The notes beneath the pieces are model-generated. The model had not been told where the DNA came from and made no database searches. It was given only the letters and a program-made list of their open reading frames with translations. Below are positions 16,141 through 55,759 of a DNA stretch of 64,000 bases, one piece after another. Both the position numbers and the translations under genes were made by a program. Numbering within the stretch: position 1 is the first letter of the stretch; each line of letters begins with the position of its first letter. This DNA is from Paraburkholderia sp. (GTDB lineage: Bacteria > Pseudomonadota > Gammaproteobacteria > Burkholderiales > Burkholderiaceae), in NCBI RefSeq assembly GCF_035948235.1, contig NZ_DASZJJ010000089.1, positions 3,467 to 67,466 of the forward strand, in the 5' to 3' direction.

Positions 16141-16454
16141 GTCGGGCTCTCCAGGAAAGGTTGGGATACGGGTGCATTGGACCGTGCGCACGTATCCGCT
16201 ACATGTCCCCAACGGCTGCCGTGTGCAACGTAATGTGTCGCGGCCCGCGCCGGATACCTGGCGATACAAATCGGCCGCGCCGTGCGGTGCTTCATGTATC
16301 CGCGTGTATCCCGGCAGCGGCGCGATACATACGGAGGCGCCGCGCGCGGTTTCCCGACATTCACCCGATACATCCAGACCTTGAAATACCGCACATGGCC
16401 AGGGCGCCGCGTGCGTTCCTCGAATTTTGTGTGGATCTGTCTGGAGACCGACTC

Positions 16455-18305
16455 ATGTTGCTGCTCGTCGTCGCATTCATCGGCGGTGTGTTCACCGTCC
16501 TCAGTCCCTGCATCCTGCCGGTCGTGCCGTTCGTATTCGCGCGCTCGGACCAGCCCTTTGTCACCGGCCGTCTGCCCTTGCTGATCGGGCTGGGCGGCAC
16601 CTTCGCACTGCTCACGGGACTGGGCGCAGCGGGGCTCGAGGGCGCAGCCCGGTTGAGTGAGTATGGGCGCTATGTCGCGCTGGCGCTCTTTGCGGTATTC
16701 GGCGCGGCGCTGCTGTTTCCCGCGCTGGCCACGCGGCTGGCGCAGCCGCTGACCACGCTCGCTGATCGTTTCGTCGCGCGCTCCGGTGGTTCCGGTGGTT
16801 CCTATGGTTCCGATCGTTCCGATGGTTCCAGCACGCAGGGCACGGCGGCCCAGGTTGGGCCGGCGTTGTTGCTCGGCGCGGCGACGGGGCTGCTGTGGGC
16901 GCCTTGTGCCGGGCCGATCCTCGGTTTGATCCTGACGGGCGCGGTCCGCCATGGCGTGACGTGGCAGACATGGGCGGCGCTTGGTGCGTATGCGGCGGGC
17001 GCAGCGTGTTCGCTCGCGATAGTCGCGAGTCTCGGCAAGCGTGCGATGGATGCGCTCAAGCGCTCCCTGGGTGTGGGCGAGCATCTGCGCCGCGCATTGG
17101 GGGTGCTCGTGCTGGTGACGGTGGGTGCGATTGCATCTGGCGTCGATACGCGGGTGCTCGCGCATTTGCCGGGTTCGCCGACCGAAGCGCTGGAAAACCG
17201 GCTGACCGGCCAGTTGAATGCGAACGCCACCGCTGCGGCGGCGTCGGTTGTGACCGTCCGACAGGCGCGGCAGTCGCCGAAGGCGAGCAGCCTGCGCGTT
17301 TCCACATCCGCCGCCGCTGTGCCGCCCGCTGCCGCGCTGCCCGTGGAAGGCACCTTGCCGTCGCTCGATGGGGCATCGGCGTGGCTGAATTCCGCGCCGC
17401 TCGCGCCGCAGGATCTGCGCGGCAAGGTCGTGGTGGTCAACTTCTGGACCTATTCGTGCATCAACTGTTTGCGCACGCTACCGTATCTGAAGACCTGGGC
17501 GCAGCGCTATCAGAACGACGGGCTGGTGGTGATCGGCGTGCATACGCCCGAGTTTGGATTCGAGCACGACGCCGGTAACGTAAAGCGCGCGCTGGCGGAT
17601 CTGGGCATCCGCTATCCGGTTGCGATCGATAACGACTATCGCGTCTGGAACGCCTTCGGCAATGCGTACTGGCCGGCGTTCTATATCGTCGATGCGCAAG
17701 GCCGCGTGCGTTATCACCACTTCGGCGAGGGCGACTACGGGCAGGCCGAGCGGGCGATCCGGCAATTGCTCGCGGAAAACGGCCACTCGACCGATGCGCA
17801 TGCGGCTCACGTCGTGCAGGCGAGCGGCGCGCAGGCCCCGGCCGATCCCGCCGATACGGGTTCCGGTGAAACGTATCTGGGTTATCGCGAGGGGCGCGGC
17901 TTTGCTTCGCCGCAAGCGTTGCAGCCCGATAGCACGGCCAGTTACACGCTGCCCGCCAATCTGCCGCTCAATGCGTGGGCGCTCGACGGGCGCTGGAATA
18001 TCGGCGCGGAATCGGCTGTGCCTGCAGCGCCGCAAGCGGGCGTCGCCTACCGTTTCCACGCGCGCGATCTGCATCTGGTGCTGGCGCCTGCGCCGGACGG
18101 CAAGCCGGTGCGCTTTCGCATCACGATCGACGGTGCTGCGCCCGGGGACGCACACGGCGCCGATGTTGCCGCGGACGGTACGGGCGTCGTGACGGGCGCG
18201 CGGCTTTATCAACTGGTGCGCCAAAGCGGGGCGATTGGCGACCGCATCTTCGAAATCCGCTTTCTCGATGCCGGTGCGCGGGTCTATACGTTCACATTCG
18301 GTTGA
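16455..18305 (+). CDS. dipZ: Cytochrome c biogenesis/thiol-disulfide transfer protein DipZ (CcdA-like membrane domain + thioredoxin domain + C-terminal domain)
   Basis: It starts MLLLVVAFIGGVFTVLSPCILPVVPF (DsbD/CcdA-type TM Cys), with a second WAPCAGP motif. The periplasmic thioredoxin domain carries WTYSCINC, and ATG 16455 follows CTGGAGA. Confidence 0.85.
   Translation: MLLLVVAFIGGVFTVLSPCILPVVPFVFARSDQPFVTGRLPLLIGLGGTFALLTGLGAAGLEGAARLSEYGRYVALALFAVFGAALLFPALATRLAQPLTTLADRFVARSGGSGGSYGSDRSDGSSTQGTAAQVGPALLLGAATGLLWAPCAGPILGLILTGAVRHGVTWQTWAALGAYAAGAACSLAIVASLGKRAMDALKRSLGVGEHLRRALGVLVLVTVGAIASGVDTRVLAHLPGSPTEALENRLTGQLNANATAAAASVVTVRQARQSPKASSLRVSTSAAAVPPAAALPVEGTLPSLDGASAWLNSAPLAPQDLRGKVVVVNFWTYSCINCLRTLPYLKTWAQRYQNDGLVVIGVHTPEFGFEHDAGNVKRALADLGIRYPVAIDNDYRVWNAFGNAYWPAFYIVDAQGRVRYHHFGEGDYGQAERAIRQLLAENGHSTDAHAAHVVQASGAQAPADPADTGSGETYLGYREGRGFASPQALQPDSTASYTLPANLPLNAWALDGRWNIGAESAVPAAPQAGVAYRFHARDLHLVLAPAPDGKPVRFRITIDGAAPGDAHGADVAADGTGVVTGARLYQLVRQSGAIGDRIFEIRFLDAGARVYTFTFG
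16785..16829 (+). repeat. In-frame 9-bp tandem repeat x5 inside dipZ (encodes GGS GGS YGS DRS DGS)
   Basis: GGTGGTTCC GGTGGTTCC TATGGTTCC GATCGTTCC GATGGTTCC. Confidence 0.9.
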
Positions 18306-18330: not shown

Positions 18331-18579
18331 TCAATCGTCTCCCCAGCGCCAGTGCGGCGGCTCGCCCTTGAGCCAGCAGAGGCCGATGAGCACGAGGCTG
18401 AGCAGCGTGACCGCCAGAATGAACGCGCCCATGTGGCGATCCGGCGCGAAAACGCGAATGGTCGCGCCCAGCAACGCGAAATAGCCGAGGAGGACGAGCC
18501 AGCCCTGCCAGCGCGTCGGCAGTCCCCAGCCCCAGCCATAGCGTTTGGCGGGGAACCAGTAGTCCCGGTTGGATGACAT
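18331..18579 (-). CDS. Small membrane protein, unknown function
   Basis: 82 aa with two hydrophobic helices and Trp-rich ends (YGWGWGLPTRWQGW ... PPHWRWGDD). CAGGAGCGAAAC precedes the ATG. Confidence 0.65.
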   Translation of the reverse strand: MSSNRDYWFPAKRYGWGWGLPTRWQGWLVLLGYFALLGATIRVFAPDRHMGAFILAVTLLSLVLIGLCWLKGEPPHWRWGDD

Positions 18580-18648
18580 CGTTTCGCTCCTGGTCGTGGC
18601 GTTGATCCTTCGGTATTGTCGCTTCTTCTGTGTGCAGGAGGCCAGATA

Positions 18649-18677
18649 TTGCAGTAATTTATAAAAAATTACTGCAA
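18649..18677. promoter_or_regulatory. Perfect 12-5-12 palindrome, putative operator 1
   Basis: TTGCAGTAATTT-ATAAA-AAATTACTGCAA sits in an AT-rich island between divergent genes. Confidence 0.7.
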
Positions 18678-18691
18678 TGCTGTAACGATCT

Positions 18692-18720
18692 TTGCAGTAA
18701 AATCTAAAAAATTACTGCAA
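18692..18720. promoter_or_regulatory. Imperfect 12-5-12 palindrome, putative operator 2
   Basis: TTGCAGTAAAAT-CTAAA-AAATTACTGCAA has two mismatches. Its centre is 43 bp from operator 1, and it ends 12 nt before the ATG at 18733. Confidence 0.7.
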
Positions 18721-18732
18721 TTTCTACGCACC

Positions 18733-19782
18733 ATGCCAGGCTTTCCTCTCTACCAGCGGCACGATCAGGCCTTCTGCTCCCAGTATGCAAACGTCGAACA
18801 GGGCGCGGCCGCGCAGCCGCGCGTGCTGGTGGGGGCGCCCGGCACGATCGTCGAACACGATCGCGGCAACGCCGTCTACTACTACCGCCAGTTCATGGAC
18901 GCAGAGGGCAAGCGTCAGCAGCTCAGTCTGGGCGGCCCAAAGGGCGATGCCGAGGCCGACGAACGCGTCGCGGCAGTGACCGGGCAGATCGAACAGGCCA
19001 AGGATCTGATCAGCCGCATCCGGGAGCTGGCCAAACTTGGTTTTCAGATCGCCGATAACAAAACCTACGCGACCATGGCGGTCCTCTACAACCACGGTCT
19101 GTTCCAGGCGGGCGCGGTGCTGGTCGGCTCGCACGCCTATGCCGTGCTGCTCAACAGTCTGGGCATCAAGGCGATCGCCTACGAGACCGAGGATATCGAC
19201 ATCGCCCGCGCGCGCCAGCTCGCCTTGCAGAATCTGCCTTCGGGCGGCCTGCTCGACATCCTGCGGGAAACCGGCATCGATTTCGTGCCGGTGCCGCCGT
19301 TCAACCGGGGCGATCCGCCCACGTCGTTCAAGCAGGCGGGCAAGACGCGTTTTCACGTCGATCTGCTGGTGCCGTCGAAGGACGATACGTTTCCAACTGT
19401 TGCAGTGCCCGAACTCGGCGCGCATGCGAGCGGGATGCCGTACCTCGCGTACCTGCTGGGCCAGTCGCATATGGGCACGCTGATCTCGCGGCATGGCGCC
19501 GTGCCCGTGCGCGTGCCCGATCCGGCGCGCTTCGCGATCCACAAGATCCTCGTGTCGCGCCTGCGCACCAATATGCTGATCAAGTCGCAAAAGGACGTCC
19601 AGCAGGCCTGCGTGCTGCTGGCGATGCTCGGCGAGCATCGCAGCGGCGATATCGAGCAGGCCTGCGCGGATCTGCCGAAATCCGCGCGTGCGCTGGTGCG
19701 CCGCGCGCTACCCGACGTGCAACGCACGCTCGAGGCCCATGAGGGCGCGCTGGCCGAGTTCGAGGAAGGACTGGGCGCCTGA
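18733..19782 (+). CDS. Pol-beta-fold nucleotidyltransferase, GSU2403-family-like (AbiEii-related)
   Basis: The 349-aa ORF has minimal NTase motifs: VGSHAY ... TEDIDIA ... FHVDLLVP. The overall similarity to GSU2403-type NTase fold proteins is recalled from memory, and there is no obvious SD. Confidence 0.65.
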   Translation: MPGFPLYQRHDQAFCSQYANVEQGAAAQPRVLVGAPGTIVEHDRGNAVYYYRQFMDAEGKRQQLSLGGPKGDAEADERVAAVTGQIEQAKDLISRIRELAKLGFQIADNKTYATMAVLYNHGLFQAGAVLVGSHAYAVLLNSLGIKAIAYETEDIDIARARQLALQNLPSGGLLDILRETGIDFVPVPPFNRGDPPTSFKQAGKTRFHVDLLVPSKDDTFPTVAVPELGAHASGMPYLAYLLGQSHMGTLISRHGAVPVRVPDPARFAIHKILVSRLRTNMLIKSQKDVQQACVLLAMLGEHRSGDIEQACADLPKSARALVRRALPDVQRTLEAHEGALAEFEEGLGA

Positions 19783-19926: not shown

Positions 19927-20919
19927 ATGAACGCATGGATGACAAAACATGAGCCGATGCCCGCGGGCTTCTTCGGCATCGCGGTGGGCACGCTCGCGCT
20001 GGCGGGTGCATGGCGGGTCGCCGCAAAGCTTTGGGAAGTGCCGGCCTTCGCGGGCACGGCGCTGACGGTCCTGGCACTCGTGGTGTGGGCGGCCGTGATG
20101 GCGATGTATGGGCTCAAGTGGGTTGCGCACCGCGAAGCCGCACGCAAGGAATGGCAGCACGAAGTGCAGTCGTCGTTCGTGGCGCTCGGGCCGGTGTCGA
20201 CGATGCTGGCGGCGCAAGCGGTCAAGCTCTGGTCGCACGACGTGGGTCTGGCGCTGTTCGTGGCCGGAGCGGTGGCGCAAATCGGCGTGGGTGTGATGCT
20301 GCACGGCCGGCTCTGGCAAGGCGGCCGCAACGCCGAACTCGTGACGCCCGCGATCTATCTGCCGACTGTCGCGGCGGGTTTCGTGGCGGCCACGACGGCG
20401 GCAGCATTCGGCCTGCCGGAGCTGGCGGTGATGTTCTTCGGCAGCGGGGCGCTTTCGTGGCTCGCAATCGAATCGAAGCTGCTCAACCGCGCCGCGCTTG
20501 CCGCACCGACCGCGCCGGCCCTGCGTCCGACCTTTGGCGTGCAGCTCGCGCCGCCGGTGGTGGGCGGAGTCGCATGGATGGCGATCATGAGCAGCATGCA
20601 TGTGTCACTGACGGGCGCAGCAGGGATCGTGGCTTACGCGCTGCTCGGTTATGGCCTGTATCAAGCGCTGTTGCTGCTGCGTTTGCTGCCGTGGATTCGC
20701 GCCCAGGCTTTCGCGCCCTCGTACTGGGCCTTCAGCTTCGGCGTCGCGGCCCTGCCGACCCTCGCGATGCTCATCGCCCAGCACGGCGGTCCGCTGTGGG
20801 TGCATGAACTGGCTTTCGTCCTCTTCGTCGCTTCGACTGGCGTGATCGGCCTGCTGATGGTCAAGACCGTCGCGCTGCTGTGGGAAGGCAAGCTGCTGCC
20901 GGTCCGCGCGCTGCAATAA
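19927..20919 (+). CDS. tehA: TehA/TDT (SLAC1-like) family anion/tellurite-resistance transporter
   Basis: The 330-aa product has about 10 TM segments and the N-terminus MPAGFFGIAVGTLALAGAW typical of TehA. CAGGAGTGAAGTC precedes ATG 19927. Confidence 0.75.
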   Translation: MNAWMTKHEPMPAGFFGIAVGTLALAGAWRVAAKLWEVPAFAGTALTVLALVVWAAVMAMYGLKWVAHREAARKEWQHEVQSSFVALGPVSTMLAAQAVKLWSHDVGLALFVAGAVAQIGVGVMLHGRLWQGGRNAELVTPAIYLPTVAAGFVAATTAAAFGLPELAVMFFGSGALSWLAIESKLLNRAALAAPTAPALRPTFGVQLAPPVVGGVAWMAIMSSMHVSLTGAAGIVAYALLGYGLYQALLLLRLLPWIRAQAFAPSYWAFSFGVAALPTLAMLIAQHGGPLWVHELAFVLFVASTGVIGLLMVKTVALLWEGKLLPVRALQ

Positions 20920-23265: not shown

Positions 23266-23677
23266 ATCTGTCCCTGTGAATGGTGAATACCGCATGCGTC
23301 AATGCCGCGCTCGCCGGAACGCCGGATCGCAACGATTTAAAAAGACAAAGCGAATCCACGTCGGCGCGAATGTGGCTGACAATTAACTTTCTATAACCGA
23401 CATTTCTAATACAATTTGTTGCGGTGAAAATTAATCAGGATGCCTATTAAAAAGACAAAGGGAAGCCCCTGAAGCCAGAACGGCCTCTGGAGATTCCCCG
23501 TGGAAAGATTTGGTAATGAAAAGATGCAGAGGAAAAATAGAGTGTGTTGCAGTGCTTTGTCAAACACTGTTACACGCTATGCAGCATGGATGAATAGATG
23601 CCTTTAAAGGCGATTTAAAGCGAATCAACAAATTTCGGAAAATAAATCGGGGGAAACGTAAGCCGTATTCGGTCACG

Positions 23678-55143: not shown

Positions 55144-55388
55144 GAGAAACTCCTGAGGGTTTTCCGCGCGCGCGGCGGGGTGTCGGCTAAGGGTGTCTGA
55201 TTGTCGTCGAGTCGCGATTAATCGCCGCACCGAAAGTGGGCAAGTGAATGAAGCGGCGCCCGGTTGATGCCTGGGTTTTAGTTTAGGGAGCTAAACCGGG
55301 GAAACAAGAAATAACTGAAATATCTCTAATGGCGGGTATTCTTGTGCGCATATCGATATGTTTTTAAAAATACATCGTTAATGCGAAA

Positions 55389-55420
55389 CAATTCATTTTC
55401 TATTTTTCAAAAATGAATTG
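55389..55420. promoter_or_regulatory. 11-bp inverted repeat in AT-rich region between the divergent ydeP-like and hns genes
   Basis: CAATTCATTTT-N10-AAAATGAATTG. Confidence 0.45.
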
Positions 55421-55759
55421 CTTGTCAATCATCAGCGGAATAGCGGTGTTCATGAAGCGCGGCCTTTCATAACGGCTGCCAGCCTGCGTCCCGATCGATG
55501 CCTTCAGGCACGAGTTCTCTGAAGCCAGTCTTTAAATGTTTTCTGACGGATTGCGGGAAGGCAGGCAAGACAGAAAAGGAAAGGGCTGCGATTCATGGTG
55601 GAACAGGGGGAGCACGGTTGTTTTACTGGCATTTTCTGCCGCAACATCATATATTCCCCCGAACCGTGAGATCAGGATGCCGCGGGGAAGGTAATCACAG
55701 CCTGAGCGATAACGAGTAGTGCGACACACCGTAGCACCACATTCAATTGAGGATAAAGG

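Follow-up and report, generated by a model that had tools for sequence, protein, structure and literature searches.

A portable one-gene nucleotidyltransferase cassette in Paraburkholderia with a conserved double palindromic operator and probable autoregulation

Here we describe a nucleotidyltransferase (NTase) gene of the GSU2403 family and the pair of palindromes that precedes it in a 64,000-nucleotide stretch of Paraburkholderia sp. DNA (contig NZ_DASZJJ010000089.1; hereafter the window). Palindromes and gene form a portable cassette, the bounds of which are set by comparison of unrelated genomic contexts. The double palindrome is conserved among close relatives, varies with protein clade across the wider family and overlaps the promoter; the gene has no partner, and its catalytic motifs are intact. 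We consider it reasonably probable that the cassette is a self-contained, one-gene module in which the NTase itself exerts negative autoregulation.

The palindromes lie in a 153-bp gap (18580-18732) between an open reading frame (ORF) of 82 amino acids (aa) on the minus strand and the NTase gene on the plus strand. The 9-mer TTGCAGTAA occurs on the plus strand at 18649-18657 and 18692-18700, and its reverse complement, TTACTGCAA, at 18669-18677 and 18712-18720. These four copies, which alternate in orientation, are the only exact ones in the window. They build a distal palindrome (P1) and an ATG-proximal palindrome (P2) whose centres (18663 and 18706) are separated by 43 bp (Table 1); P2 ends 12 nt before the ATG (18733), and a Shine-Dalgarno sequence is absent. 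Re-reading the locus recovered each of these elements of the original prediction, namely the palindrome positions, their 12-5-12 form, the two mismatches in P2, the distance between centres, the distance to the ATG and the lack of a Shine-Dalgarno sequence. The palindromes far exceed what chance would produce. P1 is kept in orthologous loci and its geometry is that found throughout the family, with 10-nt arms and an 11-nt spacer. The GC content of the surrounding 80 bp (18645-18724) is 0.26, versus 0.63 for the whole window, making this the second-lowest 80-mer in the window. The AT-rich island of the original prediction, at 26% GC, is real, and it is better seen as the promoter-operator end of a 1.14-kb cassette. 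Elsewhere in the window, strongly AT-rich intergenic DNA (55350-55430, GC 0.23; 23379-23460, GC 0.29) had no TTGCAGTAA copies and probably represents promoter regions of unrelated genes.

In all-against-all blastn comparisons, copies from unrelated contexts align only from the outer edge of P1, about 85 nt before the ATG, to the stop codon; alignments limited in this way were obtained between the window and loci L003, L007, L021, L027, L047 and L034. Homology confined to this interval across contexts defines the cassette as a portable unit of about 1.14 kb. In one subgroup, homology reaches 30-70 bp past P1. The coding part has a normal GC content (0.66), and the genes flanking the cassette are ordinary chromosomal genes. 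In Paraburkholderia (P.) bannensis the gene has the neighbours that it has in the window; in P. flagellata and P. phenoliruptrix the gene lies between entirely different neighbours. All three species carry the double palindrome directly 5' of the ATG. The operator proposed in the original prediction is thus conserved, with a double palindrome upstream of orthologues at no fewer than 13 loci of Paraburkholderia, Burkholderia and Caballeronia in differing genomic contexts. Across the Burkholderiaceae, at least seven contexts were found, some of them on plasmids (Caballeronia insecticola and P. caribensis).

An exact-pattern scan for TTGCAGTAA-N11-TTACTGCAA, made with one genome per species over 185,579 species, returned 17 loci in Paraburkholderia and Burkholderia, at 12 of which the NTase adjoins the site or is cut off by the edge of the sequence segment. 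One further locus (L026:700-815) is a truncated cassette or pseudogene that retains P1, one half of P2 and part of the gene. Two others (L006:4508-4536 and L044:4548-4576) hold a solitary P1 preceded by some 22-30 bp of conserved sequence; P2 and the gene are missing. The first of these, in P. sp. CNPSo 3272, occupies a chromosomal site at which three other species have the full cassette; the second, in P. mimosarum, lies in a different context. The solitary P1 copies and the truncated locus could be decay products or excision footprints. Two genomes each contain two divergent copies of the cassette (L047 and L017 in P. nodosa DSM 21604; L027 and L036 in P. sp. CNPSo 3274, the latter pair being about 80% identical in nucleotide sequence). 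In both genomes the two copies belong to the same TTGCAGTAA operator class, which would imply cross-regulation of paralogues. The L027 segment (oriented, ~1414-1893) also contains an extra ~430-480 bp just upstream of the cassette, which is missing from the syntenic L033 and L006.

Such mobility raises the question of whether the palindromes serve mainly as cis sites for movement or for DNA or RNA processing, either as ends used by a recombinase acting in trans or as hairpins processed by the NTase, with promoter overlap a secondary matter. Cassette homology has its left limit at the outer edge of P1, the cassette occurs in many contexts and in two copies in some genomes, and solitary P1 footprints are found in two differing contexts, all of which would fit this explanation. 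Nevertheless we judge it quite unlikely. The right end of the cassette is simply the stop codon: no matching site or terminal repeat was found there in the compared loci, nor was a target-site duplication, and no recombinase is encoded within 6 kb in L001, L003 and L004. The subgroup with homology 30-70 bp beyond P1 also departs from a boundary at the palindrome. Furthermore, the asymmetry of P2 creates a -10 element and the sites of the main clade sandwich canonical -35 and -10 elements, which is operator-like rather than recombination-site-like, and if transcription starts past the -10 element then the left arm of P2 would not be part of the RNA. Nor does the cassette fit known kinds of mobile unit (insertion sequence, miniature inverted-repeat transposable element (MITE), integron cassette or Xer-dependent module): in the loci compared there was no recombinase, two-end repeats, target duplication or attC/dif-like site. 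An empty insertion site for the window context was not found, TehA homologues leading to contexts without synteny. A search for a phage origin gave zero matches in IMG/VR, INPHARED and PHROGs.

The operator extends well beyond the Burkholderiaceae. Upstream sequence could be used at 88 loci, most of them from a set of 80 further metagenome loci, and nearly all have a single or double palindrome of the geometry described above (10-nt arms, 11-nt spacer). A palindrome matching at 9 or more of 10 positions was present in 78% of 77 non-identical upstream regions, versus 0.65% of shuffles. The half-site itself varies by clade, and all four half-sites of any one locus change in concert. The classes observed are GTATCCGTCA, GTATCCACTA, GTATCCCACA, ATATCCCTTG, GTATCCTATA, ATATGCGCTA, GTATCAGTAG, TTGTCAGTAA, TTTTCAGTAA and ATTGCAGTAA. 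Half-sites that track the protein clade can be arranged as TTGCAGTAA, TTTCAGTAA, TGTCAGTAG, GTATCAGTAG, GTATCCGTCA, GTATCCCACA, TATCCCTTG, TATGCGCTA and GTTATAAGG, a graded series that indicates divergence from a common ancestral operator. Operator geometry persists while its sequence co-varies with the protein over three proteobacterial classes (Beta-, Gamma- and Alphaproteobacteria). Homologues of 45-53% identity, from Sulfuricaulis and from marine and other metagenome-assembled genomes (MAGs), also stand alone, in contexts that are unrelated. On plasmids of Rhizobium, Sinorhizobium and Methylobacterium, homologues of about 30% identity are likewise solo genes and share the double-palindrome layout, with two copies of GTTATAAGG-N11-ACTTATAAC or of GTTATGGTCA-N10-TGACCATAAC. 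In the rhizobial plasmid versions (L143:2800-3003 and L145:2800-3003) the double palindrome lies ~95-175 nt before the annotated start, which reflects either a long leader or a mis-called start. On pRL11, the NTase gene is found between two hutC repressor genes within a histidine-utilisation cluster. Two other members have called starts inside the ATG-proximal palindrome (L056:5001-5033, P0056, 363 aa; L054:5001-5012, P0119, 356 aa); by the alignment, their true starts would be the next in-frame ATG. The N-termini of the family are thus sometimes over-extended in public annotation.

These data bear on whether the palindromes are instead operators for a regulator encoded elsewhere, the NTase being one target of a repressor of the host or of a mobile element. 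Two observations would favour such a regulator: the N-terminal domain of the NTase has no known DNA-binding fold, and P1 stands alone, without the gene, in two genomes, so that the site can persist by itself. However, within the Burkholderiaceae the scan placed the site only beside the cassette or its remnants and never 5' of another gene, so that the search for further sites called for by the original prediction produced no additional target. Half-sites change with the NTase clade in Beta-, Gamma- and Alphaproteobacteria and in unrelated contexts, a tracking that is not predicted by a host factor common to such different bacteria, and no regulator gene recurs in the flanks of 101 loci. We therefore regard a separately encoded regulator as unlikely. 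A regulon controlled by such a factor was also rejected: apart from the Burkholderiaceae sites, the matches were chance occurrences in AT-rich DNA and an unrelated repeat in Pseudonocardiaceae. This repeat, a palindromic intergenic element of ~65 bp, is present in at least five copies (L011:2914, L014:4979, L019:7046, L032:6704 and L045:6947) in two MAGs of 66-70% GC, with no NTase homologue nearby. It has a core of TTGCAGTAA...TTACTGCAA flanked by GCAATCTGGGGACAGA and TCTGTCCCCAGATTGC, and looks like a repetitive extragenic palindromic or MITE-like element that has the 9-mer in common by coincidence.

The palindromes are interleaved with a predicted promoter, as operators would be. A TAnnnT hexamer spans the junction of left arm and spacer of the ATG-proximal palindrome at 42 of 69 family loci, and in the GTATCCGTCA clade it is paired with TTGACG at a spacing of 17 nt. 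In the largest clade, the last base of the P1 spacer together with the P1 right arm reads TTGACG, and exactly 17 nt past it the end of the P2 left arm and the spacer supply TAGAAT, TAGGAT, TAAAAT or TATATT. In this clade the right arm of P1 thus contains the -35 element and the left arm of P2 the -10 element, so that the core promoter is sandwiched by two operators. The two mismatches of P2 in the window are conserved in close Paraburkholderia and Burkholderia orthologues and yield TAAAAT, with TACAAT in Caballeronia and TAGAAT in other distant members. The asymmetric left arm ending in GTAAAAT is kept in 12 of 13 aligned Paraburkholderia/Burkholderia orthologues (L027 has ACAGTAAAAT), and more distant Burkholderiaceae have GTACAAT (L146), GTAGAAT (L065) or GTAATTT (L147). 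In the window, transcription would start near 18710, in the right half of P2. The leader would be about 22 nt long (range 12-22 nt) and lacks a Shine-Dalgarno sequence. A transcript that begins here could not fold into the P2 hairpin, a point in favour of an operator acting as DNA rather than as an RNA structure. Palindrome centres are 35-36 bp apart in the main clade; most Burkholderiaceae have 43-48 bp, with outliers at 38 and 54. Helical phasing is therefore not conserved, and the proposal that both palindromes sit on the same face of the DNA does not hold for the family.

The 349-aa product is a bona fide member of the GSU2403/PF12281 family, as had been proposed: PF12281 (NTP_transf_8) matches residues 114-312 with 126 bits against a gathering cut-off of 26.3 (E = 2.7e-36), and the hG[GS] motif, the DxD motif and the third carboxylate are intact. 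Close homologues carry the NCBI name 'GSU2403 family nucleotidyltransferase fold protein', and the best relatives are from Paraburkholderia (P. bannensis, 93% identical). NCBIfam release 20 has no model that matches the NTase even at E up to 1, and the GSU2403 label evidently stems from another rule or model set. In an alignment of 51 homologues, G132, S133, D154, D156, R159, K271, R278, K287 and D288 are invariant and D210 is conserved at 90% or more. The gene is intact, has a mean column identity of 62% over its full length and is syntenic in P. bannensis without a partner; judged by this alignment, it is under purifying selection. An AlphaFold2 (AF2) model built from the 51 sequences (predicted local distance difference test (pLDDT) 93.4; predicted template modelling score 0.92) comprises a family-specific N-terminal domain (N-domain), a pol-beta-type core and a C-terminal helical domain (Table 1). 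Searched with the full model against the PDB, Foldseek placed 5uvd, an NTase-like protein of unknown function, first, followed by TglT/MenT3 folds, with template modelling (TM) scores of 0.26-0.47 overall. The TglT/MenT3 matches (6j7r, 6j7s, 6j7o and 7c46) have probabilities of 0.95-1.0 and E values of 1e-3 to 4e-3, with TM scores of 0.26-0.41, root mean squared deviations of 8-14 A and identities of 10-14%; those of probability 1.0, at E of about 1e-3, have TM scores of 0.36-0.41. Neither a sequence-profile match to any PDB chain nor a PADLOC model nor PF08843 was found, PF12281 being the only Pfam match at E up to 1.

Table 1. Coordinates of the cassette, its parts and the neighbouring genes in the window
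Feature	Position	Strand	Details and basis
Portable one-gene cassette (operator-promoter and NTase gene)	18648..19782	+	~1.14 kb; blastn between unrelated contexts
Distal palindrome P1, core	18649-18677		Perfect 12-5-12; sequence
P1, extended	18648..18678		13-bp arms; ATTGCAGTAA, 11-nt spacer, TTACTGCAAT; centre 18663
ATG-proximal palindrome P2, core	18692-18720		Two inner mismatches, AAAT versus ATTT
P2, extended	18691..18721		TTTGCAGTAA, 11-nt spacer, TTACTGCAAT; centre 18706
Predicted -10 hexamer TAAAAT	18698..18703	+	In P2 left arm; inferred from family pattern
GSU2403-family (PF12281) NTase gene, 349 aa	18733..19782	+	GC at third codon positions 0.83; Pfam; AF2 pLDDT 93.4
Family-specific N-domain, residues 1-105	18733..19047	+	Helix 12-26, strands 38-44, 47-55 and 61-67, helix 73-101; AF2
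Pol-beta NTase core, residues 106-262	19048..19518	+	AF2, Pfam, Foldseek, alignment
Catalytic residues	G132-S133 19126-19131; D154-x-D156 19192-19200; D210 19360-19362	+	51-homologue alignment
C-terminal helical domain	19519..19779	+	K271-x6-R278 19543-19566; K287-D288-x-x-Q291 19591-19605; invariant residues
DsbD-like thioredoxin protein	16161-18305	+
82-aa ORF	18331-18579	-
TehA/SLAC1 transporter	19927-20919	+	Own Shine-Dalgarno sequence

The N-domain appears to be peculiar to this family. Modelled in isolation, it gave a best Foldseek E value of 0.045, and neither a significant fold match nor a PDB sequence-profile match was obtained. A profile of the domain retrieved 182 clusters among 1.84 billion representatives, mostly of ~350 aa or truncated by contig ends, lengths that fit the NTase family. 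A winged helix-turn-helix (wHTH), for which the original prediction had proposed searching the N-terminal 120 aa, was rejected: DSSP assigns a helix-three strands-helix order to the model (pLDDT 93), and Foldseek, Pfam and the PDB profile search all speak against it. A resemblance of the N-domain to the arm-type DNA-binding domains of integrases drew sub-threshold PF13356 (Arm-DNA-bind_3) matches in 2 of 27 N-domains and no fold match, and is no more than a lead. Of the two arrangements that the original prediction had considered, a fused N-terminal module or a regulator encoded elsewhere, a self-contained module, probably under the control of its own product, fits better, but with an N-domain that is not a wHTH.

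Comparison with characterised systems shows both what the cassette has in common with NTase toxins and where it differs. AbiE is bicistronic, and its separate antitoxin, AbiEi, uses a wHTH to bind, in monomeric form, two repeats of 23 bp (PMC3985639, PMC7319586), exerting negative control through paired inverted repeats over the -35 element, the -10 element and the start site (PMC7319586). The toxin AbiEii, of the DUF1814 family, is defined by hG[GS]x15DhD, a motif III K...R pair (K173/R180) and a motif IV of the form +DxxD (PMC3985639). The window cassette likewise combines a pol-beta-fold NTase bearing hG[GS]...DxD, K-x6-R and +Dxx(D/Q) with paired repeats over the core promoter; by contrast, it has one gene, no wHTH, palindromes with 10-nt arms and an 11-nt spacer, and no PF08843 match. 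The spacing of motif III (K271-x6-R278) is as in AbiEii K173/R180, whereas 20 residues, instead of 15, separate motif I from motif II, and K287-D288-x-x-Q291 takes the place of +DxxD as motif IV. Given these two differences, we treat the NTase as a remote relative of DUF1814 proteins and not a member. The relation to AbiEii toxins given in the original prediction accordingly stands as a remote likeness of fold with equivalents of motifs III and IV, and falls short of family membership, with no PF08843 match and TM scores below 0.5. The closest characterised proteins of solved fold are MenT1-4 and TglT-TakA of M. tuberculosis, DUF1814 NTase toxins that act on tRNA acceptor stems (PMC7450476, PMC10435456) and offer a plausible analogy for the substrate. 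MenT toxins, however, have cognate antitoxin genes and do not have the extra 105-aa N-domain. Fused MNT-HEPN systems (PMC13000451) resemble the cassette in having one gene that combines an enzymatic effector with an apparent extra regulatory domain, in being patchy and mobile, and in lacking a partner, although the role we propose for the N-domain, operator binding, is not a defining trait of fused toxin-antitoxin systems. Within PF12281 itself, the operator architecture and the solo status lie outside the family definition. Full-text PMC and bioRxiv searches found no functional study of GSU2403/PF12281, making this an annotated but unstudied family with a database label only.

The likeness to AbiE also suggests a degenerate two-gene locus, of AbiE or MenAT type, that has lost its antitoxin gene through a local deletion. 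The fold and motifs resemble those of DUF1814 toxins, and AbiE promoters likewise have paired inverted repeats (PMC7319586). At the window locus there is indeed no partner, as the original prediction had noted: the neighbours are the DsbD-like gene, the 82-aa ORF and TehA, and neither an antitoxin-like ORF nor a recombinase, tRNA or Rfam RNA was found, Rfam matches being sub-threshold hairpin noise. Yet a conserved adjacent gene is found in no relative at any distance, and the NTase gene is intact, apparently under purifying selection and syntenic without a partner in P. bannensis. Among 101 loci there is no recurrent neighbouring ORF, and clustering of flanking ORFs shows local synteny only. 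The survey of relatives contradicts the loss of an antitoxin, which we consider highly improbable. For this family it also overturns two statements of the original prediction, that such NTases normally come with an adjacent wHTH antitoxin and that an orphan is unusual: across about 100 homologous loci, which span 97% to ~30% identity and take in rhizobial megaplasmids, the solo gene is the normal state, neither unusual nor the product of a local deletion.

The explanation that we favour is autoregulation by the NTase. A cis element that is always found with the gene, overlaps its promoter and co-diversifies with its product at fixed geometry, without any other conserved gene, argues that the product binds its own operator. 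In the proposed mechanism, a sigma-70-type promoter would be interleaved with two palindromic operators, and a presumed NTase dimer would read both half-sites of a palindrome with one family-specific DNA-reading surface per subunit. The half-sites are 21 bp apart, a distance that suits a dimer of a large protein. The reading surface would most plausibly be the beta-sheet/helix N-domain, which is our candidate module for operator binding and dimerisation. Occupancy of P2 would cover the -10 element and the transcription start and so repress transcription, P1 would act as a second, probably cooperative, site, and the short leader, lacking a Shine-Dalgarno sequence, would limit the NTase to a very low level. 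Such tight self-repression and weak translation signals would be expected for a potentially harmful enzyme on a mobile, patchy cassette. The NTase would probably nucleotidylate a cellular RNA or protein, and the module would act as a single-polypeptide toxin/regulator, or as a defence or addiction gene, rather than as a two-gene toxin-antitoxin pair.

Several points weigh against autoregulation of this kind. The Paraburkholderia version has no recognisable -35 element, and a simple consensus scan for promoters (and terminators) was silent on the window locus, for which reason the -10 element at 18698-18703 is given as predicted. The N-domain has no recognisable DNA-binding fold, either by Foldseek or by Pfam on 27 N-domains. 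Contrasts of specificity-determining positions and of per-domain identity did not localise specificity, phylogeny being a confounding factor. Every alternative frame of the NTase gene has, at this GC content, stop-free runs of at least 52 codons, so that an overlapping short ORF is possible. The likeness to DUF1814 toxins is remote, with no hidden Markov model match and TM scores below 0.5. Finally, that the NTase is the operator-binding protein is something we infer from sequence patterns, and its toxicity and substrate are suggested by analogy with AbiEii and MenT (PMC3985639, PMC7450476, PMC10435456).

What is new here is a view of the whole family as one-gene modules that lack an antitoxin and in which a double operator, co-evolving with the protein, is interleaved with the promoter; the window gene itself is an ordinary member. 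More speculatively, and in our estimate with less than even odds by a clear distance, the GSU2403 family may be an unrecognised class of one-gene, self-repressing, toxin-like modules. Each would join a DUF1814-related effector to a new, non-HTH beta-sheet DNA-binding domain, operator and protein would co-diversify into insulated specificity classes, and the ~1.1-kb unit would move among chromosomes and plasmids, serving in addiction or defence. One practical consequence is a correction of annotation, several called start codons falling inside the operator. If the NTase does repress itself, it would be a compact natural case of a toxin-type enzyme that does without an antitoxin gene, and a single-polypeptide, transcriptionally self-limiting layout would join the world of AbiE and MenT. 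It would probably also bring a new DNA-binding fold whose specificity can be read from some ten half-site classes, each with its proteins, a series useful for the study of protein-DNA co-evolution and for orthogonal repressor-operator pairs. It would thereby give a first functional handle on a Pfam family that is widespread in soil Burkholderiaceae, in sulfur-oxidising and marine Gammaproteobacteria and on rhizobial symbiosis plasmids.

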